Shown: positions 13,207-28,697, counted from the stretch's first letter. The stretch is 64,000 nt of DNA from Candidatus Woesearchaeota archaeon (GCA_964621025.1 CAZUKQ010000002.1:35292-99291), one strand, 5' to 3'. The notes: generated from the sequence alone by a model not told the origin. Numbers and translations are program-made.

Positions 13207-13653
13207 TTATAAAAACAATAATTTTTTGCATTCATCTCTCATAAAATTTTGATAAAGTTCTAATTTAGGTGTTCCACTTTCTATTACTTTAGAACATCTT
13301 ATCTTAACTCTCTGAGGACATTTTTCTGTTTCGTCTTCCATACTTGCACCGTAGATAATTCCTTTCATTCTTGCCCAAATCGCTGCAGAAGTACACATGG
13401 GGCAAGGTTCAAAAGTAGAATAAAGATAGCAGTTTTCTAAAACTTTTGAGTTTAATTTTTTTGCTGCAAGTTTTATTGCGTTTATTTCTGCATGACATGT
13501 AGGGTCTTGGTCTCTGTTAATTGTTGTGAAAGCTTCAGAAATAATTTCATCATCTTTTACAATTATTGCCGCTACTGCGTGGCCGCCTTCTTTATGTTTT
13601 TCTTTTGCAAGGTCTATAATCCTTTGCATAATTTTTTTATTAGGGTGTTTCAT
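13207..13653 (-). CDS. CMP/dCMP-type nucleoside deaminase (TadA/guanine-deaminase-like)
   Basis: Zinc-binding signature HAEINAI ... PCPMC (H-A-E / PC..C). Confidence 0.8.
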   Translation of the reverse strand: MKHPNKKIMQRIIDLAKEKHKEGGHAVAAIIVKDDEIISEAFTTINRDQDPTCHAEINAIKLAAKKLNSKVLENCYLYSTFEPCPMCTSAAIWARMKGIIYGASMEDETEKCPQRVKIRCSKVIESGTPKLELYQNFMRDECKKLLFL

Positions 13654-13730
13654 ATTAGAACTTACTGAGACTTATTTATATAGTTTGTTAAAGGAGTAAA
13701 CCTTATAATCTTCTTTTTTCTTTTTATCAT

Positions 13731-14234
13731 ATGGTTGAGAAGGTTGTTTGGGAATTTACAAATCAGCGAAAGCTGAACAAGAAAGAATTTCTTAATTATG
13801 TTGAGAGAAAAGTTTTTAGAACGATAAGAAAATATTCCATGTTGCCAGAGAGTAGAAAGATTGTTTTGAAGAAGTCTGATGATTCGAACACAGTTTTTTT
13901 GAAACATATTCTTGAGCAAAAGTTTCCAGTTTCATTCTCGGCAAAATCTCAGTTCTCCAGTAATAATTTGTCAGATATTTCAGAGGAGATTTTCAATAAT
14001 CTTTTGAATGGAAAATTCGAAGGTCCTCAGAACACTAAAAAGGAATTTTTCCCTTTGTATGATATTTCAGATAAAGAGATTGAGGTTTATGCTTCTCTAG
14101 TTGGTTTGAAGGGGAAAAAAGTTAAGAGAGACGAAAGAATTCAAGAGCTGTTCGAGAGATTTATGAAGAAGAATCCTGATTTAGAACATAACATTGTCAA
14201 CGCGATGGAACAGATTAATGAGGTAAATAAATGA
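13731..14234 (+). CDS. degenerate PP-loop ATPase-like (TilS/TtcA N-domain-like) protein
   Basis: KIVLKKSDDSNTVFL sits where SGGKDS is expected, and FPLYDISDKEIEVYASLVGLKG resembles the R-P-L...kei..ya motif of PP-loop enzymes. The P-loop glycines are replaced. Confidence 0.35.
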   Translation: MVEKVVWEFTNQRKLNKKEFLNYVERKVFRTIRKYSMLPESRKIVLKKSDDSNTVFLKHILEQKFPVSFSAKSQFSSNNLSDISEEIFNNLLNGKFEGPQNTKKEFFPLYDISDKEIEVYASLVGLKGKKVKRDERIQELFERFMKKNPDLEHNIVNAMEQINEVNK

Positions 14235-14602
14235 AGAAATATCGAATTTTAATGAATGATGTGCAGTTTGATGAAACTAAAAAATACTTTGATTTTTATC
14301 TTTTGAAAGGCCAGCCACAATTAGTTGAAATCGAATTAGAAGGAACGCTTGAAAAATTGACGAAAGGAGAATTGGCTGTAGATTCTGATTTTAAAGATTA
14401 TTTAATGTATTTATCTAGATGGACTGTAGAAGCGCCAAGAAAAAAGGGTTTACGTAAGATGCGATTAGAAGGAATCCAGGTATTAACCAGCGAGGTTTTA
14501 TTCGATGAAGAAGAGACTGGAGAGGAAATTATTAATAATCTAGAAAACACTGGAAAATTTGCAGAATATTTTTTGGAAGAAGTTTATGGGACTAAGAACT
14601 AG
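14231..14602 (+). CDS. hypothetical protein
   Basis: 123-aa ORF overlapping the upstream gene by 4 nt, suggesting operonic coupling. No recognisable motif. Confidence 0.35.
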   Translation: MKKYRILMNDVQFDETKKYFDFYLLKGQPQLVEIELEGTLEKLTKGELAVDSDFKDYLMYLSRWTVEAPRKKGLRKMRLEGIQVLTSEVLFDEEETGEEIINNLENTGKFAEYFLEEVYGTKN

Positions 14603-15246
14603 TTAACCTTATTCAACTTCTCAACAATTCGTTTTAGGTCTTTGAAATCTTTTATGATAAAGTCTGGTTTTTCTTTCATAATTGTTGCTTTTGTGGACCA
14701 AGCACATTGATTATGAATTGCAACTGCATAACAGCCGGCTTCTCGAGCGTAATCAACGTCGGAAAATCTGTCACCTATATACATTGCTTCTACTGGACGA
14801 ATTTTCATCTTTTTGAATAACTCCTCTAACAATTTATCTTTTGTGGTGAATTTTTCAGCGCCGTAAATTTTGTTAAACAATTTTTTTATTCCAAGAGCCT
14901 TGACAGAGGCTTTTATAAATGATGAATGAGAGTTTGATATTATCATTAACTTAATTCTTTCTTTTTTTAATTCTTTTAAAGGTTCAACAGAAACACATAG
15001 ACTTAGTTTTTCTTGCTTTGCGCCTTTGATTACTCTTCTGTAGAAAACTTTGTTTATTTTCTTTGAATCGGCATGAATATTTAGGCCTTTCAAAATATCT
15101 TTTGTTTTAACTCCCATTAGCTGTTTGAATTTTTTATCTTCAAATTTATAGCCAAGTTCTTTCAGAACAGAGTACATTGTTTCAAAAGTTAGTTTTCTAG
15201 CGTCAGAGATAGTTCCATCAAAATCAAACAGAAGAGTTTTAATCAT
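14599..15246 (-). CDS. HAD-superfamily hydrolase (phosphatase)
   Basis: Motif I LLFDFDGTISD (DxDGT), plus a later S/T motif and a terminal GD..SD. Confidence 0.8.
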   Translation of the reverse strand: MIKTLLFDFDGTISDARKLTFETMYSVLKELGYKFEDKKFKQLMGVKTKDILKGLNIHADSKKINKVFYRRVIKGAKQEKLSLCVSVEPLKELKKERIKLMIISNSHSSFIKASVKALGIKKLFNKIYGAEKFTTKDKLLEELFKKMKIRPVEAMYIGDRFSDVDYAREAGCYAVAIHNQCAWSTKATIMKEKPDFIIKDFKDLKRIVEKLNKVN

Positions 15247-15247
15247 T

Positions 15248-17230
15248 TTAGTCGTGACCCATTCTGTTTAGTAGGTCTTGTAGTTTGTCTTTGTTAGCTT
15301 CTTTATCTGTTACGTGTGTTACGGAGAATACTCCTGTCTTTCCAACAGCAGGCATTTTTTCCCCTCTTAAATCTCTTAGCATTTTGTTTCTTATGCTATC
15401 TGAAACTAATAGTTTAGCGTCTGCTGAATCTGCGATTTTCTTAGCTAAGATAACTGTGCTACCTAAACTAGTATACTGTAACTTTCCTGTTTTTGTTGAT
15501 ATTACTAATTCACCGCTGTTGATACCAATACTGTAGTCTAATTTTTGCTTGAATCTTTTATTATATTCATTAAGAGCAGTCATCAAGCCAAAACCCGTCT
15601 TTGTTGCAGCCATTTCATTATTATAGCTCTTTGTTACACTAGGTGTGAAAATAATCATTAAATAATCTTCTTTCTTTTCAATCATGCCTTTCTTGTCTTT
15701 AGCTAATTCTAAAATTTTTACTAGTTCCTCTTTAGCATGTATTCCTAGTGTTGACATATCTTTTATTTTTAATGCTAGAACTGAAGCAAGTTCTTTCTTT
15801 CCGTCCATGACTAATGAAGATTCCGCGTTGCCTTTTTTGTGGATTTCTTGTTTTGGCTCTACAAATTGTTCTGGTTTAACTTTTTCTTTTCTTGTTGGCA
15901 TCTTAAAAAATTTTCTGAAGGAAAATTTTTCTTTAATTCGGTGAGAGTTATTTGTTTTTTTGTATAAAACAAATGCAGTGCTTCCAAGTAACAATATTAA
16001 GAAAACCCAGATTAGAGGATATTTATTTAGTAAACCTATTGAGGAGGAATCTCTAACAGAGATTGCATCACCAGTTAACAGAAGGTTTTTCTGAACAGAA
16101 TCTGCACCGCTTTGAACATCCACATCATAATTTCCGTTTGGAGCATTTAAATTAAACTTTCTTACCTCGCCAACTGCAATACTCAAGTTGAATCTTTCTG
16201 TTTTATCTCCGATTTTAACTGCAATTGACTGATTGTATTTTGTGTTTCCAATGTTTGTTATTGTTAGTAGAGAACCAGAAAGATCTAAAGAAACCTTTTG
16301 TATTTCTTTAACTGCAAATTCTTTTGCCGTGATAATTTCTCCAAATGAAGCAGTAATTTGATATATTCCGGGTGTAGAATTTGTAAGGAAGTTTATGGAT
16401 GCTGTTTCTCCAGATTTAACTGACATCTTGGTTTCTTCTTCTGTTGGTGAAAGGATTGCTACATCAATTGTTCCGTCCATTTTCTTTCCAGCCTGGTCTA
16501 ATAGTTCTAAGGAGAATTTGTAATCTTGACTTGGTGTAGCCTCTAGTTCTGATAAACTTAATTCAACAAAAGTAGGAATCTGATTAACAGCTAATTTTAA
16601 AGTTTTATTATCGCTGTTTAGTATTTTTCCGTTAATTTTATCATAAACAAGAACGTTTAATTCGTAAACGCCAGCTTCTTGTTTTTCACTTACTGTAAAT
16701 TTTTCTATTACTTCTCCAGCAACGATTGCTTTTGTGATTGATGCAATCCCCCTCGTTTCTAAAAATCCTTCTAAAGGTTTTCCATTTTCTTTTATTGCAC
16801 TTATTGTTAAAGTTACAATCTCATTAGGGTTATATCTGTCTTTGTCTAACTTTGCGTCCAAATTAACTTTGTTTGATACTCTGAAAGTTTGTGTAGAAGT
16901 TTCTTCGCTGTTTATTGCAGTTTTTATCTTACAGTCTCCTGTAATGTTTCCAATATAATCTTCTGTTAAGGGTAATTTTAAAGTTCTAATTTGTTCTTCT
17001 GTTGGATAGAAACTTTTACCCATTATTTTTTCTATTGTGATTGTTTGGCTTCCGCAAATTAAATCAACAGTGAACCATCCATCGTTAGAGTTTGGTGCTA
17101 AGGTAATAGTTAGTGGAACACTATCTCCTAAATTGTAGACTGAAAGAGGTTCACTTATTGAAATTTTTGCAGAAACAAGACAGACTAGGAAGAAAAATGC
17201 TAGAACGTTCATCACCAACTTTTTTACCAT
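15248..17230 (-). CDS. receptor-like membrane protein: signal peptide, ~400-aa extracellular beta-rich region, single TM, cytoplasmic class-III nucleotidyl-cyclase-homology (CHD)-like domain with substituted catalytic residues
   Basis: N-terminal signal peptide and a TM helix (YPLIWVFLILLLGSTAFVLY). C-terminus (ASVLALKIKDMSTL ... EDYLMIIF ... DYSIGINSGELVISTKTG...YTSLGSTVILAKKIADSA...LLVSDSI) parallels the cyclase motifs FaDivGFT / GDaym / RIGIHtG.vvaG / GdtVN.AsR, but with K at the first metal-binding Asp position, I for the Asn and K for the Arg. Confidence 0.5.
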   Translation of the reverse strand: MVKKLVMNVLAFFFLVCLVSAKISISEPLSVYNLGDSVPLTITLAPNSNDGWFTVDLICGSQTITIEKIMGKSFYPTEEQIRTLKLPLTEDYIGNITGDCKIKTAINSEETSTQTFRVSNKVNLDAKLDKDRYNPNEIVTLTISAIKENGKPLEGFLETRGIASITKAIVAGEVIEKFTVSEKQEAGVYELNVLVYDKINGKILNSDNKTLKLAVNQIPTFVELSLSELEATPSQDYKFSLELLDQAGKKMDGTIDVAILSPTEEETKMSVKSGETASINFLTNSTPGIYQITASFGEIITAKEFAVKEIQKVSLDLSGSLLTITNIGNTKYNQSIAVKIGDKTERFNLSIAVGEVRKFNLNAPNGNYDVDVQSGADSVQKNLLLTGDAISVRDSSSIGLLNKYPLIWVFLILLLGSTAFVLYKKTNNSHRIKEKFSFRKFFKMPTRKEKVKPEQFVEPKQEIHKKGNAESSLVMDGKKELASVLALKIKDMSTLGIHAKEELVKILELAKDKKGMIEKKEDYLMIIFTPSVTKSYNNEMAATKTGFGLMTALNEYNKRFKQKLDYSIGINSGELVISTKTGKLQYTSLGSTVILAKKIADSADAKLLVSDSIRNKMLRDLRGEKMPAVGKTGVFSVTHVTDKEANKDKLQDLLNRMGHD

Positions 17231-17276
17231 AGTTCTTTTATAGAAGCTAACTATTTAAAGATTTTTATAATAGAAT

Positions 17277-19145
17277 TTAATAGACTAATTCAAAATCTCC
17301 GAAAGATTTTTTCAAGATTTCTAATGCTTTTAGGTCAATTTTAGATTCATTTTTCTTTTCGGCAAGTCTTTTTTGCAGTTCTTCAGCATTTGAGTCTACT
17401 ATTTTCCCTTCTAAAATCTTAGTTATTTTGTCTCCTTCAACTACAAATGTGTTTCCTAAAAAGAATACTTCTGCAGATTTCTTATTTCCTTTAATTATGA
17501 ATCTTGTTCGGTCCATTGACATGAAATCGCATCTTTGATTATATTCTACAAGTGCGTTGATAACTTCCATTCCGCTTCTTCTTGCTTTTTCAACTTCGTT
17601 TATCTCTTTTCCAGTCAACAAATCTTTTTTCTTTTCTTTTTTAGCTTCGTTCTTTTCAGATTTTAATTCGTCCTTTACTCTGATAAGAACTTTTAGGTTT
17701 TCAAGATATTTTCTCGGGAATTTTCCAGTTTTAATCATCTTATTTTCAAATTCCTTAACAACATCTGCTTCTTTTTCTTTTTTCAACATAGGTCTTAACA
17801 TTCCCAAAACGTCTTCATATATTTGTGAAATACTTTTTTCCTCAACTCTTTTTTCAATTTGTTTTCTCAGATCTTTTAGTCTAGTGTAATAATCAATAGA
17901 GTCTTTTACTAATCTATCTAATTCTTGTCCCGAAACTTTCTTGATTTTTCCGTGTTCGAATCCTTTGTAGTATTTTATAACAACTTCTTCGAGAATATCT
18001 GCGTATTTTGCTTCTACAAGTTTCTCTTTTTCTACGAAAATTTCTCTAAAGGCTTTTACAGTTTCTTTAGGAGTTGAAGGTGTTAGCCCGTAAATCATAA
18101 GTAGACCTTGTGTTGGTGTTGAAATTCCCCAATATAAATCATGAAGAACTACATCCATTAATTTTCTTTCGACCATTTCGCCCATTTTATCGCCTGAGGA
18201 CATGAACATATCAATTGCTTCAGGTGTTGGTTTGATTTTTCCTCTTCTCAATAAAGATTTCCAAGGTAGGAAAACTGCTCTGTCGTAAAGTGGAACACCG
18301 TCTCTTAGAAAAGTGAAAGCTACAGGTTCTGCGTCTCTCAATCTTTCCCAGAATTCTGTTAACAATGCAACTTGAACGTTTAGAACATTTCCAACGCCAG
18401 CCATTGCAGTTGCTTCTGCAATATAACTGTAAATTATTGAACGTAACTTTTCTCTGATTTCTGCACCGGACATTCTTTTTACATCAGTATCATCGATTAT
18501 TACGAAAACATCTACATCTGAAGTTTTTTTTGCTTCGCCTCTAACTAGAGAACCTGCAATAATATAGGAAGTTACGTATTTTTCGAATTTTTTTAAGACT
18601 AAAGTTCTGTGAATCATTGAAACTCTTAGAGCACCAAGCAATCCTTTGTCGAAAAGAGGGAAAGACATTGCTATCGCTTCCATTACATCGAATTTGCTAT
18701 CTAAACCTAGGTTCCAAACATCAACTGGAGTCATTATATGTGTCCAGATTTTGTCGTTGTATTTCTTTGCTGTTTTGATAACTTCTGCTTTTATCTTTGC
18801 TAAGTTTTTGAATTGGTTTTCTGGAAGAACTAAAATAATGTGGATAAGTTTTTTGTCTGCTGCTTCTTTTGCAATTTCATATTCTTCTTCTATTTTTTGA
18901 TTTGCTTGTGCAGGAATTATCCCTATAGATTCAATAAATTTGTATTTTGTTTTGATTTCCTTCGTGAATTTGTCAATGTCTTGCTTTGTTTTGTCTGCTT
19001 CTTTCTTCATTTTTTCTTCTAGAGAGCTTTGAATAGTGTTTGCAATTGGAAGATCGCCCAGTTTTCCTTTAGGAACATATCCGCTAGAAAGGTTTTTTTC
19101 AACAGAAGCATTTTCAGTCTTTATTCTAGAACTTGGTTCAGCCAT
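17277..19145 (-). CDS. large Pol-beta-superfamily nucleotidyltransferase-domain protein (unknown specificity)
   Basis: Catalytic signature GSLVRGEAKKTSDVDVFVIIDD (hG[GS]...D.D), flanked by a Lys/Glu-rich coiled-coil N-terminus and a long helical C-terminus. Does not follow the archaeal CCA-adding enzyme pattern. Confidence 0.5.
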   Translation of the reverse strand: MAEPSSRIKTENASVEKNLSSGYVPKGKLGDLPIANTIQSSLEEKMKKEADKTKQDIDKFTKEIKTKYKFIESIGIIPAQANQKIEEEYEIAKEAADKKLIHIILVLPENQFKNLAKIKAEVIKTAKKYNDKIWTHIMTPVDVWNLGLDSKFDVMEAIAMSFPLFDKGLLGALRVSMIHRTLVLKKFEKYVTSYIIAGSLVRGEAKKTSDVDVFVIIDDTDVKRMSGAEIREKLRSIIYSYIAEATAMAGVGNVLNVQVALLTEFWERLRDAEPVAFTFLRDGVPLYDRAVFLPWKSLLRRGKIKPTPEAIDMFMSSGDKMGEMVERKLMDVVLHDLYWGISTPTQGLLMIYGLTPSTPKETVKAFREIFVEKEKLVEAKYADILEEVVIKYYKGFEHGKIKKVSGQELDRLVKDSIDYYTRLKDLRKQIEKRVEEKSISQIYEDVLGMLRPMLKKEKEADVVKEFENKMIKTGKFPRKYLENLKVLIRVKDELKSEKNEAKKEKKKDLLTGKEINEVEKARRSGMEVINALVEYNQRCDFMSMDRTRFIIKGNKKSAEVFFLGNTFVVEGDKITKILEGKIVDSNAEELQKRLAEKKNESKIDLKALEILKKSFGDFELVY

Positions 19146-19259
19146 GATTTTATTTGAGTTTTTAGATATATAAATGTTATTACTTAATTCTAGTAGGGAT
19201 TTCTTTAGATTATGTTAGACCACACAAATCCTTAAATAATAACTCTCTTAAAAGAATAG

Positions 19260-19466
19260 ATGAGATACATACTTCATGGAAGCAATGATGCAGATACTGA
19301 TAACGCGATGAAACTTTTGGACAAAGCAGAGATTCCTTACAGACTAGAAATGGACAAAACAGAAATTGTTACTTTAGTAGGATTTGGTGGAAGATACACA
19401 GGTTTACTTCAGATTCATCAGGCATTTGGTAGTGGTTCTTTAGAAGATTTAACTATAGCTGCTTAA
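19260..19466 (+). CDS. small hypothetical protein
   Basis: 68-aa ORF upstream of tRNA-Val. Weak support. Confidence 0.25.
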   Translation: MRYILHGSNDADTDNAMKLLDKAEIPYRLEMDKTEIVTLVGFGGRYTGLLQIHQAFGSGSLEDLTIAA

Positions 19467-19513: not shown

Positions 19514-19586
19514 AAAATTTATCGATCCCGTGGTCTAGTGGTTACGACGTCTCGTTTACACCGAGAAGATCACCGGTTCAATTCCG
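19514..19586 (+). tRNA. tRNA-Val (anticodon TAC)
   Basis: Cloverleaf folded by hand: acceptor GATCCCG/CGGGATC, anticodon stem TCTCG/CGAGA with loop TTTACAC, T-arm ACCGG-TTCAATT-CCGGT, discriminator A. No encoded CCA. Confidence 0.85.
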
Positions 19587-19620
19587 GTCGGGATCATTCG
19601 TAATTCTATTCAAATTTTTA

Positions 19621-20202
19621 TTAAGCAGCCAAAGTGAATAGGTTGTAAGCGCCAGTGAATATCAATTCTATTGCTATTGCTGTCAAGAATAGGCCCAAGA
19701 TTTTAGAGCTGATTTTGATAACTTTAAGGTTTATTTTTCTGATGCTGTAGGAGAACAGGACAAAAACAATCCCTACTAGAATAAATGTTGGGATGATGTT
19801 TAAAAGAAGCGCAGTTTTTCCTATTTCTATAGATTTGATTATTATGAATGAAATTGTAGCCGGACCAGTTAAAAGAGGGGTTGCTAAAATAGAAATTAGG
19901 CTGTCAACTTTTCCAACTTTATCTTCTTTTTCTTTATCTCTAACGGTGTCTAGGCCAAGTAAAAGTAAACAAATACCTCCAGCAATTCTAAATGAATCGA
20001 TGGTTATTCCAAAAAAACCGAAAAGGCTTGAACCTATGAGGCAGATGATAATCGCAATAACGAATGCTAACAATGAAGCTTGAACTGCAATTTTTTTAAC
20101 ATTCATTTTGTTTTGATATGCAGTAAATAGAACTGGAAAAGACGAAAAAGGATTTATCAGCACAAACATTTGTACAATCAATGCAAGACTTATAATTTCC
20201 AT
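19621..20202 (-). CDS. marC: MarC-family integral membrane protein
   Basis: Six predicted helices. N-terminal LINPFSSFPVLF and GICLLLLGLD motifs typical of the MarC/UPF0056 family. Confidence 0.7.
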   Translation of the reverse strand: MEIISLALIVQMFVLINPFSSFPVLFTAYQNKMNVKKIAVQASLLAFVIAIIICLIGSSLFGFFGITIDSFRIAGGICLLLLGLDTVRDKEKEDKVGKVDSLISILATPLLTGPATISFIIIKSIEIGKTALLLNIIPTFILVGIVFVLFSYSIRKINLKVIKISSKILGLFLTAIAIELIFTGAYNLFTLAA

Positions 20203-20262
20203 TTGATTAAAAGGATAATCTATTTTTTAAATACTTCTGCTAGAGAAAATTAAATTAATTTC

Positions 20263-22176
20263 TTACTCTTTCTTTCTATTTCTTCTTACTTTGTATGCTG
20301 CGATTGCACCAGCTGCTCCAAGAATGTATGGCCAAGGTCCAAGATAGATTTGTTTCTTAAGAAGAGGATTGTTTTCTACAAATTGTCCTTTAAATTCAGA
20401 TTCAATTCCATACTTTTGAGCTAGGTCTTTTGCATAAGGTCTTTTTGTTGCGTTAAGTAATTTGACGATGTCGTATCTTGCAACCAAAGTAGATTCTTGA
20501 GTAAGGGCTCTGCTTAAATTTCCAACGTTCAAATCATTGAATAACATTATGTCACTTCTTTGGTCATTTATGAATCCCAAAACTGAATGTTGGCCAAATC
20601 CTCTATGGATTTGATCAGGCATCAAAGATTCCATATAGGCCCCATATTTGAAATATTGCTGTGAAGTTTTCATATCGCTTTCTGATGGAGCCATAAATGA
20701 ATAGTTTGCTGTTAGTGTGAGGTCTGTTTCTGGTTTTATTCCCCTTGCAAGTTTTTCTAGTTCGACTATTTCGTCGTGTGTAGGTTTACATAAAACTTTT
20801 CCAATAAGTTCTTTTTTCTTGTCTATTTTTCCGTTGCCGTTCAGGTCAAGATAATAACTGTAAATTACGTCGCTACCATAACTCAGGAAGAAATCTCTTA
20901 TTTCTATTCTAGCTATTTCTCCGAATTTGTCTTCTAAAGAGTAACCGCCGTTGTTGTATTTATCGAATAAATAATTTGCATCTTTTCCCTTTCCAAGTTT
21001 AAATGATTTAATAATTGGCCAAGAACCTGGAAAAAGGTCCCATTCATTTTCAACTCTTAGAATGTTTGATTTGTCTCTGTTAACTCCAAGCCACTGACTA
21101 AATCTTTGTAGATTACTTGGATCTTCTCCAAGATAAATTGTACTTTCTTGAGGTAATATTTTTAGAACACCATCTTCAAAAGTGGAGTAGATTGGTTGTT
21201 TTTTCATTTGACTAGTTAAATCAACCATTTTATTAGCTAATTTTTCTCTAACTTTTTCATTAACTGAGCTTGAACTGTTAATTGCTTTTACTGTTTTGAA
21301 GAATTCATCTGCTAAAACTTTGTTTTCAGGAGTTTCAAGAAAATCTTCTAGCAATGTTCCTTCTCTGTAAAAGTCTCCAAATAAAAATCCAAATACTCCT
21401 CTTTTTTCAGCTAGACGGTTAACCATTACTCTTTTGTCTAGTTTACCTCGGTGATCTGTTTCAATAATCCCTAGTTCGTTTGGACCAAGAGTTCCATCAG
21501 TAGGAAATTCTACAACGTCTATGTCAACTTGTCTTGTTCCTCTTTCCGGATCATGTTTGTATACCATGTATTTGTTTGCACCTTTTGTAGATGTACCATC
21601 TTCATCTACGATTAATTCTGCAAATTGTTCTTTGAAATTTATGCTTCCACCGATACTCAATCCTGCCTGAAATCTTTCTGGTTTTTGATCGGTAGCAGCA
21701 ATTCTTCTCTGTTGAGTGTTGAACATTTTGTAATATTCTATATCTCCTCTTGTTTCTCGAATAGTTTCTGTAATGAAAGTTCCAACTTTACTTTCTACTC
21801 CTCCGCCTTCCTGTACTTGTGTTATTGATTCTCTGTCGGCTTTTTCTGCAGCTTTCTTCTCTTTATTTCCTGCGACGTAAACTGTATGAGATGTTCGGTA
21901 GGTGACATTTCTTTCAGCAACATTCTGTCTTTTTGTTAAATAATCATAACTTAACCAGGCTACTCCCAAACCCAATGCTACTGCACCAATTTTAAGATAA
22001 GGTCCGAGATGCTCGCTGCTTTCTTTTTTTAGAGTTTCAAATCCTCCTTTTAGTTTATCTGCGAGTGTCTTTTTTTGTGGAGCTCCAGCTAAATTTTCTC
22101 CAGTTGGTTCAACTGAAGGTCTATTTGACATTCCTTCTTTCAGTCTTGCGATTCTTTCGCTGTTATCTTCTACCAT
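20263..22176 (-). CDS. hypothetical 637-aa protein with N- and C-terminal TM anchors (island gene 6)
   Basis: TM helices near residues 60-80 (IGAVALGLGVAWL) and 610-630 (GPWPYILGAAGAIAAY) with a large intervening domain. Gln/Arg/Gly/Thr-rich composition unlike the neighbouring genes. No known motif. Confidence 0.5.
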   Translation of the reverse strand: MVEDNSERIARLKEGMSNRPSVEPTGENLAGAPQKKTLADKLKGGFETLKKESSEHLGPYLKIGAVALGLGVAWLSYDYLTKRQNVAERNVTYRTSHTVYVAGNKEKKAAEKADRESITQVQEGGGVESKVGTFITETIRETRGDIEYYKMFNTQQRRIAATDQKPERFQAGLSIGGSINFKEQFAELIVDEDGTSTKGANKYMVYKHDPERGTRQVDIDVVEFPTDGTLGPNELGIIETDHRGKLDKRVMVNRLAEKRGVFGFLFGDFYREGTLLEDFLETPENKVLADEFFKTVKAINSSSSVNEKVREKLANKMVDLTSQMKKQPIYSTFEDGVLKILPQESTIYLGEDPSNLQRFSQWLGVNRDKSNILRVENEWDLFPGSWPIIKSFKLGKGKDANYLFDKYNNGGYSLEDKFGEIARIEIRDFFLSYGSDVIYSYYLDLNGNGKIDKKKELIGKVLCKPTHDEIVELEKLARGIKPETDLTLTANYSFMAPSESDMKTSQQYFKYGAYMESLMPDQIHRGFGQHSVLGFINDQRSDIMLFNDLNVGNLSRALTQESTLVARYDIVKLLNATKRPYAKDLAQKYGIESEFKGQFVENNPLLKKQIYLGPWPYILGAAGAIAAYKVRRNRKKE

Positions 22177-22182
22177 GCTACT

Positions 22183-23067
22183 TTATTTACGTCCTAAAAC
22201 ATTTTTCTCGAAGTCGTCTAGTTCTTGTTTTCTTTTTGCCTTAGCATCGTCTAGTTTCTTCTGAGCAGCTTGTTCTTTGGATCTTCTTTTGTCAATAAGA
22301 CCTTGTCTTATTGATTCTATTCCAGTTCCAATAGCACTAGTTACGCCTACAGTAGCCTTACCAGCTTTTTCTCCAATAGCCGCGCCAATTTCTCCAGCAG
22401 ACAAATCTTTTTTCATTTCATTCTGTTCTGGACTCTTAGCTAGTTCTAGATTAGCTGTAGCTGAATAAGTTCTAACAACTTCTAAAAGTTTTCCGTCCTT
22501 TGTTAGTTGTTTAAGAATGTTATTCACTTCAGTTTCTTCTTTGGATCTTCGGATATAATCTTTTGTTTTAAGCATTCCTTTTCCAAATTGCAATCCTAAG
22601 AACAATCCTGCTGCTTGTGCAGGTGTGTACAAAAGTGCGTTAATTGGATTCCCTACTCCTGTCGCAATACTTGAAGCAGTCACAATTCCGTCGCCTACAA
22701 GTTCTATACCGAAAGCAGTTCCTAATTGAGCACGAGCACTTAAAGTGTTTAGTCTCTCATATGGTTTCAATCTTCCAAGTCTTTCTGTAAGTCTTTCTGT
22801 TCTAGATGTATTTTGTGTTGTTACAGTTTCACCATAACTTCTAAAATATTCTCTTGCAGTCATTACGTTTTTCAAATAGTCTTGAGAACTTGTTTCTTCT
22901 GAATGTTGTACTAGATATTCTAGTGCTTCAGCTTGTCCAAGTTTTTTTGCAATTCGTGTGTCTGCATTTCTTCTTGCGTTTTCAGAATAGTGTCTGTCTG
23001 TTAAAGACAAAGCTAGTCCGCCGACAAAATGTCCAGCAAAGTTTAAACCCATTTCTTGTAATGTCAT
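22183..23067 (-). CDS. hypothetical 294-aa protein with Gly/Ala-rich segments (island gene 5)
   Basis: Contains GVGNPINALLYTPAQAAGLFLGLQFGKG and SAGEIGAAIGEKAGKATVGVTSAIGTGIES. The C-terminus is charged and coiled-coil. No known motif. Confidence 0.5.
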   Translation of the reverse strand: MTLQEMGLNFAGHFVGGLALSLTDRHYSENARRNADTRIAKKLGQAEALEYLVQHSEETSSQDYLKNVMTAREYFRSYGETVTTQNTSRTERLTERLGRLKPYERLNTLSARAQLGTAFGIELVGDGIVTASSIATGVGNPINALLYTPAQAAGLFLGLQFGKGMLKTKDYIRRSKEETEVNNILKQLTKDGKLLEVVRTYSATANLELAKSPEQNEMKKDLSAGEIGAAIGEKAGKATVGVTSAIGTGIESIRQGLIDKRRSKEQAAQKKLDDAKAKRKQELDDFEKNVLGRK

Positions 23068-24359
23068 TTTTTACCTCCTTGTTGATTTAGTTGATTTTCA
23101 AGTAAAACACGAGCAACATGTCTTTTTCGGTTTAGGGGCATCGAAGGGAATTCTCTTCTTAATTTGCTTCTGTTGTATTCATACATTCTGATAACATCTG
23201 TAGGGTCTATTTCTGCAAGTAGGTGATTGATTACTTCTGGTTTAGATACAGGTTCAGAAAGTTTTAACATTGTTTCGTAACATAATTCATCGGCTTCTAC
23301 TAATTCTTTAATTTTTATACTAGAACTTCCTAAAACTTTTCTCACCTTACTCATCTCAGTCCAAGTAGGTGATAATTCTGAGGAGTGAGCTGTTACTTCT
23401 CTTTTTCTAGCAGTGTCATCTAAGTCTGCTAAATCAATTCCAGCAGTGAGAAGAGTTTCATCTTCCATTTCTTGTAATCTTCTACCCACTAAATCCGGAT
23501 TAAATTGTAGGAATTTGTATTTATGTAATGTTTTGATTAATTCTGTGTCGTGTAAGTCAGAAGTTAATATTTCAGAACTCAAATCTTTCGGTTGGCCTTG
23601 ATGATGGGAAATAAAAATTCCTGCAAGGTCGTCTTTATTTTTGAAATTTCTCAAACAGTAAGCTCCTTTAAAAAATTCAGCATAGAAACAGTGAACTTCT
23701 TTTGTTACAGGAAATACTTTTGAAATTGCTCTGTTTGTTGAACCACCTAATATGGCTGCTAATCCTTGAAGTTGTGAAATGTATTCGTCATCTAGTGCAT
23801 TGTGCACATTTAATTTTCCAAGCATCTGATCCAATCTTAAACAATTTTTTACAGTTCCTCTTGAAGTGTCCAAGTTTACTTCTACAGTTCTTAATTGAAG
23901 TAAATCATCTGCTGTTTGAAAAATATCTACGCCGTCTTCCATTTCACCGAATAAAGCTTCTGAGTGAGTGACATCTTCGATAGTATGCTTTGCTTGTCTA
24001 TAAACTTCGTCGAATAAACCATTTTCATAGGAAGTTTGAGGAAATACTAGAGGAGCATCTTTTTGGTCTGGAGAAACTACAATCATGTATCTATTAGCCG
24101 AACCAATGTTAAGATAGTTTTCTCCAAATTCTAAAAGTCTATGTGTCGGATTTTTTTCTTTTAAGTGTGCAGCAACTTCCGGACTTAATCCTCTTTTGTC
24201 TACTCTAAAAGAATCTAATGTACAGTCCCAACTGAAAGCTTCTTTCAAAACTGCGTTGTATCTTTTTGCAAGTTCTCCGTCGACAGTAAGGAGTCCTTGA
24301 TTGATTAAGCCAAGTTGTTCTAAATCAACATTTCTTTTTGATATTTTTATTTCTGCCAT
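23064..24359 (-). CDS. hypothetical 431-aa protein (island gene 4)
   Basis: Overlaps the downstream gene by 4 nt, suggesting translational coupling. No recognisable motif. Confidence 0.5.
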   Translation of the reverse strand: MAEIKISKRNVDLEQLGLINQGLLTVDGELAKRYNAVLKEAFSWDCTLDSFRVDKRGLSPEVAAHLKEKNPTHRLLEFGENYLNIGSANRYMIVVSPDQKDAPLVFPQTSYENGLFDEVYRQAKHTIEDVTHSEALFGEMEDGVDIFQTADDLLQLRTVEVNLDTSRGTVKNCLRLDQMLGKLNVHNALDDEYISQLQGLAAILGGSTNRAISKVFPVTKEVHCFYAEFFKGAYCLRNFKNKDDLAGIFISHHQGQPKDLSSEILTSDLHDTELIKTLHKYKFLQFNPDLVGRRLQEMEDETLLTAGIDLADLDDTARKREVTAHSSELSPTWTEMSKVRKVLGSSSIKIKELVEADELCYETMLKLSEPVSKPEVINHLLAEIDPTDVIRMYEYNRSKLRREFPSMPLNRKRHVARVLLENQLNQQGGKK

Positions 24360-24360
24360 T

Positions 24361-26223
24361 TTATTTTCCAGTTAGTCTTTTCATTGCCTCTTGATTTACT
24401 TGTGCTTGATGCATTACTTTCTTGACATCTGATTCAAATTTTTCTTGAGTGTACACGTCTTGGTTTTTTGCGTATCTTATAATTTCTCTAGCGATATCTT
24501 CTGCGGAAACTTTTTTAGATAAATCTCTTAGGATTCCGACTCTTTCTTCATATGGTTTAAAGAAAAATTCGTTTGGATTTTCAAACCAAGTTTCTGGAAT
24601 ATCATAATCGTTAATTCTTTTTTTGATTGCGTCAGAAACAGAATCAATAGGTCTTCCGGTAAATCGAGGGTTTAGTCCCTTGTAATAAACACAGAGTTCA
24701 CCAATATCTTTGAAGGTTTTTATTCCGCCTTTGAATCTTGAAAGTGCTTCGTTTACAAATTTTTCATCTTCTTTCGAGGTGATTTCAAAACCAGTTTGGC
24801 CTTTTCTCATTTCAAAAGGAGTGTATCCTTTGCCAAGTTCAACGTCGATGATACTCATTCCAGGTTTAAGCCAACTTCCAAGTTTGTTTCGTAATATGTC
24901 TGCATAGTCATACCATTCTTGAGGACCATCTACTTGATATTGTGAACCAAATCTCTGAAGTAACGCTGCGTCTAGAGAAGTAGGTGCGTTTGTAGCAGCC
25001 CACCATTGTACATTTCCTCTTTTTCTTTTACTCAAATCTGTTCCAGCCATTATCTGCATTAATCCATTCAAAATATCTTTATCTGCTCCACCATTGCTAC
25101 CGTCTCTGTCTCCTTCCATCAATAAGTCAATATCATCTATAACTCCAATGTTCAGTCTTGTTGGGTCAGCAGTTTCGTCGTCTGCAGCAGCCATCTTTGC
25201 AGCAGTTCCACCATACATTTTATCTTTAACTTTCGGATCTATCATTATTCTATGTAAGTTAAGTCCTTTGGCATTTTTTTCTTTCCAGAATTCAGCTGTT
25301 TGATCGCATCTAAGTTTTGCTCTTGTCCAACCAGCTAAGAATAAAGTAGACTTACCAGTTCCGGGAAGACCGACGTAAAGAACGCTCCAAGATAGCCCTC
25401 CAACTTCGCCAATAGGATTCTTTTTTAATATTGGATCGTAAAGTCCTAATCTGTCCATGTCTCTAAACATTTCTTTTTTAGCAAGAACATTTCCTGCAAC
25501 TTCATGAGGTTGAACTAATGTGAATTCTGTTTTAGAAGCAGTTTTTTCTTCAAGTTTGCTTTCAAAACCAGAGAGAGTAAATTCTCCCATAACATCGAAG
25601 TTAGTAGTACTTACCAAATCTACTAATCTTTTATTTAGATTAGGTTTTAATTCAAGCGCTTTACTTTTTAGGTGTTCAAAATATGGAATGGTTGATTGGA
25701 CTAGTTCTTGTCCGTTGTTTATTATACTTTTATCTTTTCTGTGTTTGGTAATTCCATAATATACTGCAAGAGTATTATTAAGGACTTCATTTTCTGTTTG
25801 ACTAAAATCTGGATTAAAGGTTTTTATAGGAAATTCCATTGGTTCACCCTGTAATATTTTACTAAGTCTGCTTTCAATGAAGGATGCTGCTCCGAACGTA
25901 GAATAAGCTCCCATGAAAGTTCTTTTTTCTTTGTCAGGAATTTCTCCATCTATTTTTTCCTGAATCATTCTTCTTTGAAGTTGTTCATATAATTCCCCGT
26001 ATAAAGAAAAGCCACTTCTTAGAGCGTCGGTTGTCCCAACTAATTCGTTATCTAATTTTAAACCTTTTATTAAGTCTGTCAAGCTTGGTCTATTTTGTGG
26101 GTCGATTCTAACACAATTCATTCTGCTATCTACATCTGCTCCTCGTTTTTCTAGTGCGTCTTTAGATATAGGTATTAAATTGCCGCTCATTTGTTTCCTC
26201 CGTTTATGCCATAAACTCTGCAA
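24361..26223 (-). CDS. AAA+ ATPase, classic clade with Vps4/spastin/katanin-like sensor/Arg-finger region (island gene 3)
   Basis: Walker A VLYVGLPGTGKST, Walker B IGVIDDIDLL, sensor-1/Arg finger WAATNAPTSLDAALLQRFG (compare ATN.P..LD.A..RRF of meiotic-clade AAA). About 270-aa N-terminal and 190-aa C-terminal regions are unassigned. Confidence 0.75.
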   Translation of the reverse strand: MQSLWHKRRKQMSGNLIPISKDALEKRGADVDSRMNCVRIDPQNRPSLTDLIKGLKLDNELVGTTDALRSGFSLYGELYEQLQRRMIQEKIDGEIPDKEKRTFMGAYSTFGAASFIESRLSKILQGEPMEFPIKTFNPDFSQTENEVLNNTLAVYYGITKHRKDKSIINNGQELVQSTIPYFEHLKSKALELKPNLNKRLVDLVSTTNFDVMGEFTLSGFESKLEEKTASKTEFTLVQPHEVAGNVLAKKEMFRDMDRLGLYDPILKKNPIGEVGGLSWSVLYVGLPGTGKSTLFLAGWTRAKLRCDQTAEFWKEKNAKGLNLHRIMIDPKVKDKMYGGTAAKMAAADDETADPTRLNIGVIDDIDLLMEGDRDGSNGGADKDILNGLMQIMAGTDLSKRKRGNVQWWAATNAPTSLDAALLQRFGSQYQVDGPQEWYDYADILRNKLGSWLKPGMSIIDVELGKGYTPFEMRKGQTGFEITSKEDEKFVNEALSRFKGGIKTFKDIGELCVYYKGLNPRFTGRPIDSVSDAIKKRINDYDIPETWFENPNEFFFKPYEERVGILRDLSKKVSAEDIAREIIRYAKNQDVYTQEKFESDVKKVMHQAQVNQEAMKRLTGK

Positions 26224-27302
26224 GGATTTCCATATTCGTTGTGGTCTCCTCTCAGATTTTGTTTTATTCTCGTCGGCACTATTAATCCTTCGTGCATTAG
26301 TTGAGCTTCAGAATAAATTTCATATTCCATAGGTCTTTGAGTTACAACTGCTTTGATGTGTTCTAAAGTATTTCTAAAAACTCTTCGTCTGATGTCTACA
26401 CTTAAGGCTAATTCAACTTTGAATTTCAAAGCAGATGGGTCTTGACATCCTTCGAAGGCTTTTATCATTTGTTCAGAATTAGAAGTAACCGAATCATAAA
26501 ATGGACCTAGAGTATATTTTCTAACTTCTTTAGGGTGTATTTCTTCTATGGACTGGTTTAATCTAGTAGCAAAACTTTTTAGTCCTTCAATTCCGCTTTT
26601 AGTTTGTTGAATAAAGTCTTCTAGTTTAGGATTTGGTGTTGCAGGTTTATCTCCTTCGGCATGTAATGCTGGGAAATTTTCATTTTGTGTAAACCACATT
26701 TTGTAAAATACAGGTACTGCCGGAGAAGATTGAAGACTACACCAGTCGATCGCATAAAATCTTTTTTGGTTATTTGTTCCTCGGAATTCTAGTTGACCAG
26801 GAACGACTCCTTCACCTGGAAGAGTTTTTGTTTCTAGCAATTTACTGTAGTAAAGATTTCTTTTAAGAAGAATTTGTTCATGTGCAATTGGTTCTCCAGC
26901 TTTAATTTTCCATTTCATAGTATTTAACAAAGCAGGTTGTGTTGGGAGTTGAGCTAAAACTTCTTGAGCTTGTTCTCTATCTTTGTCTAAATAATAAAAA
27001 TCTTTGAAAGTAGGAAAACCTGATTCGAAAGGAAGAATGGTTGGTTGAAAGTCAATTCTGTCTTCGCCTTCAGTAGCATGTTTCAGTCTTAAACAATCTA
27101 AGCTGTCTATCAGAAAGTCTAAACTAGGCGATAAAAAACTGTGATCAAATTGTTCGGTAGAAATTTCTCCAATTACTCCTTTGAATTCTGTAACTTTTTT
27201 TATTAGTCTGTTAAAATAAGGAACAGCTTGTGTAGAATCTAATCTTCTCAAACTATTAGCCGCTTCTCTTTCAAAATCTTTCAAACCCTCTGTAAGTTCC
27301 AT
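26187..27302 (-). CDS. hypothetical 371-aa protein (island gene 2)
   Basis: Its 3' end overlaps the AAA gene start by about 37 nt. No recognisable motif. Confidence 0.5.
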   Translation of the reverse strand: MELTEGLKDFEREAANSLRRLDSTQAVPYFNRLIKKVTEFKGVIGEISTEQFDHSFLSPSLDFLIDSLDCLRLKHATEGEDRIDFQPTILPFESGFPTFKDFYYLDKDREQAQEVLAQLPTQPALLNTMKWKIKAGEPIAHEQILLKRNLYYSKLLETKTLPGEGVVPGQLEFRGTNNQKRFYAIDWCSLQSSPAVPVFYKMWFTQNENFPALHAEGDKPATPNPKLEDFIQQTKSGIEGLKSFATRLNQSIEEIHPKEVRKYTLGPFYDSVTSNSEQMIKAFEGCQDPSALKFKVELALSVDIRRRVFRNTLEHIKAVVTQRPMEYEIYSEAQLMHEGLIVPTRIKQNLRGDHNEYGNPCRVYGINGGNK

Positions 27303-27318
27303 TTGATTTAATAAAGAA

Positions 27319-28536
27319 TTAAGCTCTAGTAGGATCTGCAGCTGCGTAATCAGCCTTTGCAGTTCCGACTACCTTTTCGTAAAGTTCTCTTGAAGCCTTG
27401 GATCTTGCTAACCAAGTATTTAATTCATCAGGAGTCATAGGTTTAGCAGTTGTTCTTGCTCCTAATTCTCCCAAGATAGCTTCTGTGTGAATTGCTCCGA
27501 CTTTTACAATTTCTGCAACCGTTTTGTCCATTGCAACATCTGCTTGACCGAAAGATCTAACTTGGTAACCCGTTTTTAAGATTGTTTCAATATTTGTGAA
27601 TAGGACTGTTCTGTTGTCAATCTTTTCTTGCATATCAACAATACCATTGTTAATTCCTCTGATAATGTCTCTAAAGTTGGATAAAACTTGTTCTTGGTAT
27701 TTCAAGTCGTTTTGAGCGTTTTTTACAATTCCGAAGTAAAAGTCTTCTTGAGTCTTAGCTGTTTCAAGTGCGTCTCTAACTTCAATTCTTTCTTTGTCTT
27801 TAGCTGTTCTTGCTTCTCCAGTTAGTGTTGCTAGTTGTAATTCTAATTCTCCTAGTTTTATTTCTTCTTTCTTTCTTTCTGTTTGCCAAGCATCATATTG
27901 TTTTTCGTTTTCAAATAGTTTGGTCATAGTTGTATCTCTTGTTGATTGAACTTCATTTGCAGCCTTTTGGTTGTTTATACCTGCCTGGTACATTACATCT
28001 TTCATAGACTTGTAGTAATCTAAGAGTGTAATTACATTTTGATCTAAAGTTGATTTAAGAATTCTTTTTGTTCTTAGTTTTTCTGCTTCTTGCTGTAAAC
28101 CTACTCTTGCTGTTTCTAATTTTGCTTTGTTATAAAACTTGCCAATGATTGGAAGATTAGCTTTTTTTGTTAAATTGTCAGCTTTATCAATTAACAATTG
28201 TTCTTCAGGAAGGTAGGTAGTTATTCCACCAAGGTATTGTTCAATTTCACCAAAAGTAGATGTTAAGAAACCAACTGTTTCACCAACGAAGGAAGTAAAT
28301 TCTTTACCCGTTTCAAGTGCTGCTTCAAGTTGGCTTTGTCCAGTTTTTACATCTCTAACTCCTCCAGCTAAAACCTGTTCAGATCCTTGTCTGTATGTTT
28401 TAAGAAATTCTTCGTTAGATTGCTGTAACTTTTGTGCTTTACCAGCAATGTCTGTTTGTTTTTTCCCAGCTTCAGTAGTCATTTGTTCAAATAAGTTTGT
28501 TTTGATTAATGTTGTTGGTGCTGTTTCGTTTACCAT
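27319..28536 (-). CDS. hypothetical 405-aa coiled-coil protein (island gene 1, promoter-proximal)
   Basis: Almost entirely heptad-like, charged helical sequence (KLGELELQLATLTGEARTAKDKERIEVRDALETAK...). Could be TelA-like, ESCRT-III-like or another helical scaffold; I could not tell which. Confidence 0.45.
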   Translation of the reverse strand: MVNETAPTTLIKTNLFEQMTTEAGKKQTDIAGKAQKLQQSNEEFLKTYRQGSEQVLAGGVRDVKTGQSQLEAALETGKEFTSFVGETVGFLTSTFGEIEQYLGGITTYLPEEQLLIDKADNLTKKANLPIIGKFYNKAKLETARVGLQQEAEKLRTKRILKSTLDQNVITLLDYYKSMKDVMYQAGINNQKAANEVQSTRDTTMTKLFENEKQYDAWQTERKKEEIKLGELELQLATLTGEARTAKDKERIEVRDALETAKTQEDFYFGIVKNAQNDLKYQEQVLSNFRDIIRGINNGIVDMQEKIDNRTVLFTNIETILKTGYQVRSFGQADVAMDKTVAEIVKVGAIHTEAILGELGARTTAKPMTPDELNTWLARSKASRELYEKVVGTAKADYAAADPTRA

Positions 28537-28626
28537 GTTCGTATGATTATTTTATCAAAAGTTCATATTTAAATCTTTCGTTTTTGTTACTCTTTTATAA
28601 TTACCACACTAATCTTTTGAGAAAAA

Positions 28627-28697
28627 TGCAGTCGCCGAGAATCGAACTCGGGTCACAACCTTGGCAAGGTCGTATTCTACCACTAAACCACGACTGC
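28627..28697 (-). tRNA. tRNA-Gly (anticodon GCC)
   Basis: Reverse complement gives GCAGTCG...CGACTGC-A. Anticodon stem CGACC/GGTTG with loop TTGCCAA, T-arm CCGAG-TTCGATT-CTCGG. 71 nt. Confidence 0.85.

Follow-up and report, generated by a model that had tools for sequence, protein, structure and literature searches.

Does the cassette of six large genes lying between a tRNA-Val and a tRNA-Gly gene in this DPANN archaeon represent a recently acquired element, and what might its products do together? We addressed both questions in a window of 64 kb, the whole stretch of DNA that was analysed.

A tightly packed operon

The six minus-strand ORFs occupy 8.3 kb (20263-28536) and were found at exactly the coordinates proposed in an earlier reading of the DNA sequence alone (hereafter the sequence-only reading). 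Their gene-to-gene spacings of 16, -4, 1, -4 and 6 nt (ORF coordinates), together with ATGA overlaps, indicate co-translation; the six genes form one tightly coupled operon, translationally coupled. For the third gene, g3, the 620-aa ORF of that reading stands but its TTG start at 26223 probably does not: the start is most likely ATG 26190 (MSGNLIP..., 609 aa), which overlaps the stop of g2 as ATGA and is preceded by GGAGG.

Upstream of g1, a candidate archaeal promoter (28566..28580, minus strand) combines a purine-rich BRE-like stretch with a TATA-like box, TTTAAATA, at 28573-28566. We assign it tentatively from the known BRE/TATA architecture of archaeal promoters; a scan for sigma-70 promoters gave no enrichment. 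The box precedes the start codon of g1 (ATG) by about 34 nt, which would give a very short leader. At the other end, a T-rich stretch immediately 3' of the g6 stop (20240..20262, minus strand) is a candidate archaeal oligo-T terminator, likewise read from the sequence. Both flanking tRNA genes exist, tRNA-Gly(GCC) where it had been noted (28627-28697, minus strand) and tRNA-Val at 19524-19596, 10 nt off its noted position; the MarC gene described beside the latter is at 19621-20202.

A native operon rather than a recent insertion

The cassette had been proposed to be a tRNA-targeted acquired element marked by a compositional break. A mobile element recently integrated at tRNA-Val or tRNA-Gly would fit the tRNA genes on either side and an amino acid usage unlike that of the neighbours, the share of Gln, Arg, Gly and Thr being 0.24 in the cassette and 0.176 ± 0.032 outside it. 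This is the sole usage difference, however: GC differs by less than 1 SD from that of the other 40 ORFs of the window (0.352 versus 0.337 ± 0.023) and GC3 is lower rather than higher (0.21 versus 0.257 ± 0.041), so that only the amino acid part of the supposed break stands. Nor did a search for att-like direct repeats, which the sequence-only reading had suggested along with one for an integrase, find any that pair the two borders, where repeats are short, imperfect and scattered (17-28 nt, 73-94% identical), and a scan of ten flanking ORFs turned up neither an integrase nor any other mobility gene. These flanks encode MarC, a nucleotidyltransferase, PPK2, the thermosome, a HAD hydrolase and an aminoacyl-tRNA synthetase (Trp/Tyr class).

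Most related loci have no adjoining tRNA, and in the nearest relative (L005/L012, about 75% amino acid identity) the cassette lies, inverted, beside the same thermosome and downstream genes. Divergence from this relative has proceeded at an equal rate in the cassette proteins (55-76% identity) and their neighbours (43-77%). Given the housekeeping flanks and the neighbourhood kept in the nearest relative, the operon is native to its DPANN host and not a recently inserted island, and integration at either tRNA gene is highly improbable.

A classic-clade AAA+ ATPase

The ATPase noted in the 620-aa ORF (g3, 24361..26190) is borne out by a Pfam match to the AAA domain (PF00004; 41 bits, threshold 21.2) at residues 281-431. 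The protein's single AAA module lies between a helical N-domain of about 270 aa and a C-domain that is peculiar to the family and carries an NPRFTGR motif. As judged on orthologues in the fetched loci, bacterial ones included, the family keeps a Walker A motif (GxPGTGK[ST]), a pore loop (K..[YW]YG), a Walker B motif (hhhhDDID), a sensor-1 Asn and an Arg finger within LRQRF. Elements such as GLPGTGKST, AATN, LLQRF and KMYGG are kept across the family alignment and align to the D1 domain of Cdc48. An aromatic pore loop, sensor-1 and an Arg finger are hallmarks of substrate-threading unfoldases in the Cdc48 clade.

Searched against PDB, the g3 profile matches the D1 domains of Cdc48, AFG2 and VAT (about 4e-20, confined to the AAA core), and its top relatives are Cdc48, AFG2, VAT, NSF and PAN. 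By these sequence criteria g3 is a classic-clade AAA+ ATPase nearest to Cdc48/AFG2/VAT D1 and not, as first suggested, specifically meiotic-clade-like. Walker A, the aromatic pore loop 1, the sensor-1 Asn and the SRH Arg finger align residue for residue with D1 of Cdc48/p97/VAT and AFG2 (PF00004), which points to a ring-forming, substrate-threading ATPase. Several features nonetheless set g3 apart from Cdc48/VAT: it has a single AAA module instead of two, there are no known matches to its N-domain (about 270 aa) or its C-domain (NPRFTGR...INDYDIPE), and its partners are g1, g2 and a DUF6638 protein rather than proteasome or ubiquitin adaptors. In addition, Walker B reads hhhhDD(I/V)D and not hhhhDE in all family members, archaeal and bacterial, a change from the DE of Cdc48/VAT that retains the carboxylate on a shorter side chain. 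Hydrolysis may thus be slow or switch-like rather than processive, and the invariant DD defines a separate AAA+ subfamily.

A single-ring AAA+ ATPase encoded with helical, possibly membrane-associated proteins also recalls Vps4/CdvC with ESCRT-III/CdvB, and the 'RF' following the Arg finger is a meiotic-clade-like feature. Membership of g3 in the meiotic clade (Vps4/CdvC, katanin, spastin) was rejected because no MIT domain was detected with Pfam and because of the top PDB relatives named above; Vps4, katanin and spastin chains are not among the 60 best PDB matches, and g3 reaches 17.6 bits with the CdvC equivalog model, whose cut-off is 650. We nevertheless weighed the reading in which g1 and/or g5 form membrane-bound helical polymers of ESCRT-III or PspA type that the AAA+ ATPase disassembles. 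In its favour, the classic-clade AAA+, which has a pore loop, is encoded together with a long helical protein and with another that has hydrophobic segments and whose conserved C-terminal helix is basic; AAA+ proteins are moreover documented as partners of the PspA/Snf7 family in both bacteria and archaea (PMC11237479). However, Snf7 and PspA_IM30 matched none of 79 sequences of g1, g2, g5 and g6 (Pfam, E<=0.01), so that neither g1 nor g5 appears to belong to the ESCRT-III/PspA-Vipp1 superfamily. Neither g1 (370-405 aa) nor g5 is of ESCRT-III size, and g2, DUF6638 and the large ectodomain of g6 would be left unexplained. With the AAA+ domain itself closest to Cdc48/AFG2, such remodelling is improbable.

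Conserved cytoplasmic partners

The ATPase is encoded among three proteins that recur with it. The first core component, g1 (27319..28536, 405 aa), is a coiled-coil-type cytoplasmic protein, predicted to be largely helical, whose orthologues hold the equivalent position in related loci; hhalign relates it to the gene that opens the bacterial clusters (97.4% for Sinorhizobium, 99.9% for Planctomycetota), while its Pfam and PDB matches do not rise above coiled-coil noise. The soluble g2 (26187..27302, 371 aa) is likewise a core component and a constant companion of DUF6638, which it adjoins also in loci that lack a nearby AAA gene (L042, L043). It corresponds to the neighbouring gene in Sinorhizobium (hhalign, 99.6%) and has no Pfam or PDB match, even using a 26-sequence cross-domain profile.

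The 431-aa g4 (23064..24359) had been taken to lack motifs, but it is a full-length member of DUF6638 (PF20343; 80.4 bits, gathering cut-off 27; residues 29-425 on positions 12-399 of the 439-position profile) and the remaining core component. PF20343 is a family without known function, to which our analysis adds a context: its members nearly always adjoin g2, and usually the AAA+ ATPase and g1 too. Profile and database searches gave no assignable fold or motif for g1, g2, g4 or g5.

A probable helix-anchored envelope module

The Gly/Ala-rich g5 (22183..23067, 294 aa), whose ATGA start overlaps the g4 stop, has no Pfam or PDB match; hydropathy and alignment reveal three moderately hydrophobic segments, one N-terminal and two central, and a basic helix at the C-terminus. 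Bacterial loci (L040, L044, L045) pair it with g6, also where the core is missing. The membrane protein g6 (20263..22176, 637 aa) runs from a disordered N-tail (pLDDT <50 at 23-36) through a TM helix (about 61-77), a beta-rich domain of roughly 530 aa and a second TM helix (about 610-630) to a basic tail. Its structure model is confident and places both helices terminally, in agreement with the TM helices proposed at both ends. Positive charges are enriched after TM2 (K/R 5.2, versus 2.6 before), a bias that is weak at TM1 (4.3 versus 3.4), and this charge bias would place the large domain on the outer face. The domain carries a DLNGxGKID Ca-loop motif at 444-452; Ca-loops of the DxNxDG type are typical of extracytoplasmic proteins.

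The beta-rich domain resembles VDAC/Tom40, porin barrels and Rhs/YD-repeat shells at the level of topology only, with 4-8% identity and Foldseek matches that are not significant (TM-scores below 0.2, none at E<=0.001). The fold of g6 is confidently predicted and is without a close solved relative. We rejected a transmembrane beta-barrel of the porin/VDAC type: 61 of 170 strand residues are charged or strongly polar and most strands are polar on both faces, which argues against a lipid-embedded barrel, and anchoring is by helices. Unlike porin and VDAC barrels, g6 is held by alpha-helices in an organism without an outer membrane.

Strands polar on both faces are compatible with a water-filled chamber, and export or surface assembly was considered accordingly: the AAA+ ATPase would unfold cargo leaving through or with g5/g6, the barrel-like domain of g6 serving as an external chamber or conduit that might, in DPANN, make contact with a host cell. 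Linked small soluble families (g7, h240 and the paralogues of L041, described below) could be the cargo, but these candidate genes are absent from the 64-kb window. The operon also encodes no multi-TM channel component, the likeness of g6 to a barrel is the topological and statistically insignificant one just given, and the system is present in free-living bacteria with large genomes as well; we therefore give this reading little credence.

Distribution and modularity

The relatives of the operon reveal how its parts combine. All six genes occur in strict shared order in about 25 distinct loci, seven of them from genomes labelled DPANN, which supports their being real genes and provides the conservation in related genomes that the sequence-only reading had left to be checked. 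All six are together on a Planctomycetota contig (L040), and a 10-Mb bacterial contig (L045) has five of the six, with g1 at the locus edge. Smaller sets are also found: the core g1-g4 (coiled-coil, g2, AAA+, DUF6638) occurs without g5/g6 in Vibrio and Sinorhizobium, where in the latter it is followed by another membrane protein, DUF2333; g2 and g4 stand alone in Riflebacteria and Acidobacteriota, and g5 and g6 in Ca. Vecturithrix. An archaeal variant (L041) has ten tandem paralogues in place of g5/g6.

Archaeal and bacterial versions are 36-50% identical across the whole system, which the two domains share, implying inter-domain transfer; 'acquired' holds only on a deep time scale. Identity at this level documents the passage of a multi-gene machine from bacteria to DPANN or the reverse. 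For five of the six families there is no characterised match in Pfam, NCBIfam, PADLOC, PHROGs or PDB, and the literature does not mention the cassette families, in keeping with the earlier view that several proteins, among them an ATPase, a helical one and one anchored in the membrane at both ends, make up a system not yet described.

This distribution bears on the main rival reading, an anti-virus or anti-plasmid defence system in which the AAA+ core senses or processes an invader signal and variable downstream modules (g5/g6, DUF2333, the tandem paralogues) act on the membrane and cause abortive infection. The system is patchily distributed among distant phyla of both domains, with high identity between the two domains, the modules downstream of the constant ATPase core appear swappable (with the tandem array of L041 as one case), and genomic contexts vary among DPANN loci. 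In Vibrio the core is carried on a plasmid of 882 kb, the Sinorhizobium cluster contains an IS element and an endonuclease gene, and L045 is interrupted by a PIN toxin-antitoxin pair. However, PADLOC (PADLOC-DB 2.0) returned only AAA-level noise for g3 (E 0.03-0.15; IetA, TRIP13) and no match for the other five proteins; no known effector domain, be it a nuclease, a protease, an NADase or another, was found in the system, and no homologue on phage or viral contigs. Flanks are mostly housekeeping genes, without defence islands. Strong and uniform conservation, strict synteny and a divergence in the lineage of the window at the rate of the thermosome are atypical of fast-turnover defence loci, and defence is thus rather unlikely.

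A proposed two-module protein machine

The reading that we prefer, at a probability of roughly 40%, is that the operon encodes a two-module protein machine in which a cytoplasmic AAA+ unfoldase complex assembles, extracts or operates an envelope module. Module A, common to many bacteria, would comprise g1, g2, the single-ring AAA+ g3 and g4 in the cytoplasm, and module B would comprise g5 and g6. The preceding sections establish the operon, its conservation and modular make-up, the clade and motifs of the AAA+ and the architecture of g6; the topology of g6, and how the two modules are coupled, on which substrate and to what biological end, we infer as follows. Held by two membrane helices, g6 would display its large, polar, Ca-loop-bearing, beta-barrel-like domain outside, while g1, g2 and g4 would position the AAA+ hexamer at the inner face of the membrane. 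The pore loops would then thread or remodel a polypeptide, perhaps the cytoplasmic tail of g6, which is disordered, and/or the C-terminal tail of g5, which is conserved. The effect of threading would be to assemble, extract, recycle or gate the g5/g6 complex. Since several bacteria have the core without g5/g6, and the archaeal variant has ten paralogues instead, the envelope module may be one of several interchangeable clients or effectors.

Known machines that act on membrane clients (FtsH, Msp1/ATAD1, Bcs1 and mycobacterial EccA with the ESX membrane complex) pair a cytoplasmic classic-clade AAA+ with membrane proteins bearing disordered tails. By analogy, our cassette may be of this kind, a cytoplasmic AAA+ being encoded with tailed membrane proteins. 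The likeness is one of function only: unlike these systems, g3 has neither a TM segment nor a protease domain, and no homology to their partner proteins was detected.

A bolder version of the two-module machine, which we hold to be unlikely, is a trans-envelope machine of an unrecognised kind, exchanged between bacteria and DPANN, in which the AAA+ ATPase and its three cytoplasmic partners would build or drive an external beta-barrel or chamber of new fold that binds Ca and is anchored by helices.

Implications

DPANN archaeal genomes are about 1 Mb, and this archaeon still retains an 8.3-kb, six-protein, apparently ATP-driven system whose non-AAA parts match nothing characterised. Planctomycetota, Proteobacteria, Acidobacteriota and further bacteria also have the system or its four-gene core, which makes it a widespread piece of prokaryotic cell or conflict biology. 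Its culturable, genetically tractable hosts (Sinorhizobium meliloti, Vibrio parahaemolyticus) make it directly testable. If the trans-envelope machine proved true, the system could have a cell-surface or host-contact role in episymbiotic DPANN, such as attachment or the transfer of material.

Operon structure and expression signals

Six minus-strand genes, g1 to g6 in operon order, run from 28536 to 20263 in the window and encode a coiled-coil protein (g1), a soluble protein (g2), an AAA+ ATPase (g3), a DUF6638 protein (g4, PF20343), a Gly/Ala-rich protein (g5) and a membrane protein (g6); ORF calling returned exactly the coordinates of the sequence-only reading. The two tRNA genes that it described as bracketing this cassette are both present, tRNA-Gly(GCC) at 28627-28697 and tRNA-Val(TAC) at 19524-19596, the latter lying 10 nt from where it had been placed. 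Orthologue alignment sets the start of g3 at ATG 26190 (MSGNLIP...) rather than at an upstream TTG, and this ATG, preceded by GGAGG, overlaps the g2 stop codon as ATGA. With g3 read from here, the ORF coordinates give gene spacings of 16, -4, 1, -4 and 6 nt, indicating that the six genes are translationally coupled in a single operon. Candidate signals that fit an archaeal promoter and terminator are a TTTAAATA box, which precedes the g1 ATG by ~34 nt, and a T-rich tract directly 3' of the g6 stop; a sigma-70 promoter scan, a model uninformative for an archaeon, showed no enrichment.

Elsewhere in the window, an Rfam tRNA match of 43.9 bits at 38258-38406 (+) spans 149 nt and represents an intron-bearing tRNA missed by ARAGORN in bacterial mode. 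Because it overlaps the start of the ORF at 38363-38938, the called start of that ORF is probably wrong. This intron-bearing tRNA, a thermosome gene and cassette homologues from named archaeal genomes mark the host as an archaeon.

Genomic neighbourhood and origin of the cassette

The cassette had been proposed to be an acquired island beside tRNA genes, set apart by its composition. Its GC content is 0.352 against 0.337 +/- 0.023 in the 40 other window ORFs, while its GC3 is lower (0.21 against 0.257 +/- 0.041), so that the proposed compositional break holds for amino-acid usage alone and the small rise in GC stems from the kind of protein encoded rather than from foreign DNA. The two borders share no att-like repeat, and no integrase was found among the flanking genes scanned, which encode MarC, a nucleotidyltransferase, PPK2, a thermosome and an aminoacyl-tRNA synthetase. 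In the nearest relative, the MAG archaeon ELA258 (loci L005 and L012), the cassette adjoins the same thermosome gene (76.5% identity) and is followed by the same downstream genes, and its proteins are 55-76% identical to those of the window, the same range as the neighbours. Conserved synteny among relatives had been named beforehand as speaking against acquisition, and the ELA258 neighbourhood provides it; confident assignment of the cassette proteins to housekeeping functions, also named, was not obtained. A tRNA adjoining the cassette is absent in most related loci, and although both tRNA genes stand at its borders here, we regard its origin as a tRNA-targeted island as essentially excluded.

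The orientation of the cassette with respect to the shared thermosome gene is opposite in the window (20263-28536) and in ELA258 (L005, 114-8492), and the end-points of this inversion fall at the two tRNA genes in the window. The ORF at 15248-17230 (-), beside the nucleotidyltransferase gene, encodes a further large protein without assignment (660 aa; no Pfam match at E<=1e-5). In a Nanoarchaeia genome (L003), an SMC-like gene with a LAGLIDADG-domain intein lies upstream of the cassette (1-1825), and immediately downstream come a tRNA-Ser and then a tyrosine integrase (16047-17425); the integrase element seems to run outward from the cassette. A viral or plasmid origin was considered and rejected: DUF6638 relatives were found neither in phage records nor on viral contigs.

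Distribution among archaeal and metagenomic loci

With the DUF6638 protein as a handle we recovered ~25 distinct related loci, seven of them from genomes labelled DPANN and the metagenome contigs being unlabelled, and wherever the contig was long enough all six genes were present in the same order. Where a homologue of a cassette protein carries a genome name, it is that of a Pacearchaeota, Woesearchaeota or Nanoarchaeia genome. A seventh conserved family, g7 (about 277-286 aa, no Pfam match on record), is encoded immediately after g6 in several DPANN loci (L001 14085-14918, L003 14345-15190, L004 14044-14877, L010 13977-14837 and L014 7262-8089), and an HMM search of the whole 64-kb window found no homologue of it. 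A further family linked to the cassette, the eighth (h240, about 215-260 aa, helical in appearance), occurs in most related loci, 19 in all (e.g. L001 5024-5668, L007 8265-8999, L008 14079-14810 and L023 3489-4151), either immediately after g6/g7 or immediately before g1; neither the window nor the locus of its closest relative contains it. One archaeal variant (L041) retains the core of g1, g2, AAA and DUF6638 genes, with DUF6638 extended to 543 aa, while g5 and g6 are replaced by ten tandem paralogues (11635-19350) of 185-307 aa and 23-48% identity, which may be interchangeable clients or effectors.

Bacterial copies and modularity

DUF6638 genes were found by tblastn in Vibrio and Sinorhizobium replicons, preceded by genes for three proteins, one helical (~360 aa), one of ~375 aa and an AAA protein of ~635 aa, which hhalign matches to g1 (97.4%), g2 (99.6%) and g3 (100%), the last over its full length, C-domain included. 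A Planctomycetota contig carries all six genes in permuted order, its g6 being 38% identical to the DPANN profile and lacking the C-terminal helix, and a 10-Mb bacterial contig (L045) has five confirmed genes, g2 to g6, ordered as in DPANN, the g1 position falling at the edge of the fetched stretch. A gene similar in size to g7 follows g6 in the latter contig too. Bacterial and archaeal g6 proteins show a mean similarity of 54%, the remaining sequences (archaeal or unlabelled) 51% among themselves, and this parity implies that the system was transferred between domains.

The modules also occur apart, g2 and DUF6638 being present without the ATPase in Riflebacteria and Acidobacteriota, and g5 and g6 without the core in Ca. 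Vecturithrix. At 50% identity the DUF6638 family falls into 400 clusters, almost all of 400-460 aa, and a fusion check of the longer proteins found no additional known domain. In Sinorhizobium, a DUF2333 membrane protein follows DUF6638 in the g5/g6 position and has in common with g6 the short motif NGG[YW]...D.F[WF]..[YF]G; as the hhalign probability is only 2.4%, we do not claim homology. Insertions were seen in two bacterial loci: a PIN/DUF6364 toxin-antitoxin pair with seven small ORFs between g5 and g6 (L045, 6470-9939), and an endonuclease-domain gene with an ISRm16 transposase between the AAA gene and DUF6638 in Sinorhizobium meliloti Ak57 (L039, 6997-8742).

The main rival to the functional reading proposed below is a defence or conflict system, in keeping with a patchy distribution, carriage on a plasmid, the insertion of IS and toxin-antitoxin genes, and downstream modules that can be swapped. 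We consider it unlikely; against it, the cassette has no known effector and no PADLOC match, lies in housekeeping neighbourhoods with strict synteny, and encodes proteins that diverge much as the thermosome does.

ChvI is an envelope-stress regulator. A ChvI-binding fragment has been mapped inside 'SMc02733' at ~2,587,012 on the S. meliloti 1021 chromosome (PMC3687685). As a lead only, the gene with this tag may be part of the core cluster in Sinorhizobium.

Protein families of the cassette

Pfam, NCBIfam, PADLOC and PHROGs scans of the six proteins, and a Pfam scan of 79 orthologues, recognized only AAA and DUF6638, and PDB searches with profiles of all six families, among them one of 108 sequences for DUF6638 and a cross-domain one of 26 sequences for g2, matched nothing beyond the AAA core. 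Thus g1, g2 and g5 have no relatives in these collections, even with cross-domain profiles, and a single-sequence homologue search with g2 returned only four proteins. We found no literature on DUF6638, PF20343 or PF10095, nothing relevant on DUF2333, nothing on this system in searches for DPANN and AAA, and no mention of the gene set as a whole in the literature searched.

Judged by its sequence, g3 is a classic-clade AAA+ ATPase: its core aligns to Cdc48/AFG2/VAT D1 (about 4e-20, PDB profile search), and the alignment contains Walker A, an aromatic pore loop (KMYGG), sensor-1 and an Arg finger. Its N- and C-domains have no match in the same search. No Vps4-type protein is among the best 60 PDB matches shown, and g3 fails the CdvC model; ESCRT/PspA-like remodelling by the cassette seems to us quite improbable. 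The Walker B of g3 (residues ~360-367, window region 25135-25146) reads hhhhDDID, not hhhhDE, as it does in all family members examined, whether archaeal or bacterial. The DD form defines a distinct AAA+ subfamily, possibly with altered hydrolysis.

The predicted model of g6 is of high confidence (pLDDT 89.8, pTM 0.86): a disordered N-tail leads into a long helix that includes TM1, after which come 19 strands with helices between them, among these helices 283-323 and 502-595, and a C-terminal TM helix. Since the strands are polar on both faces, the large domain is modelled as a soluble barrel-like sheet rather than a membrane barrel, and as the K/R bias puts the C-tail inside, this domain is predicted to lie outside. 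Conserved in g6 are residues N408-Y412 and a loop at D444, DLNGDGKID, which belongs to the Ca-binding DxDxDG type. Foldseek found no significant match to the model in the PDB. Protein export by the cassette we hold to be similarly improbable.

A proposed two-module machine

We rate the six-gene system as outside any described kind, and its function is one that we infer. The evidence supports a two-module machine, made up of a cytoplasmic core of the AAA+ ATPase and three dedicated partners (g1-g4) and of an envelope module (g5 and g6). Classic-clade unfoldases whose clients are anchored in membranes provide the analogy for the reading that we tentatively propose as the most likely one, with a probability of roughly 0.4: the ATPase would thread a cytoplasmic tail of g6 or g5, and such threading would assemble, extract or operate the envelope complex.
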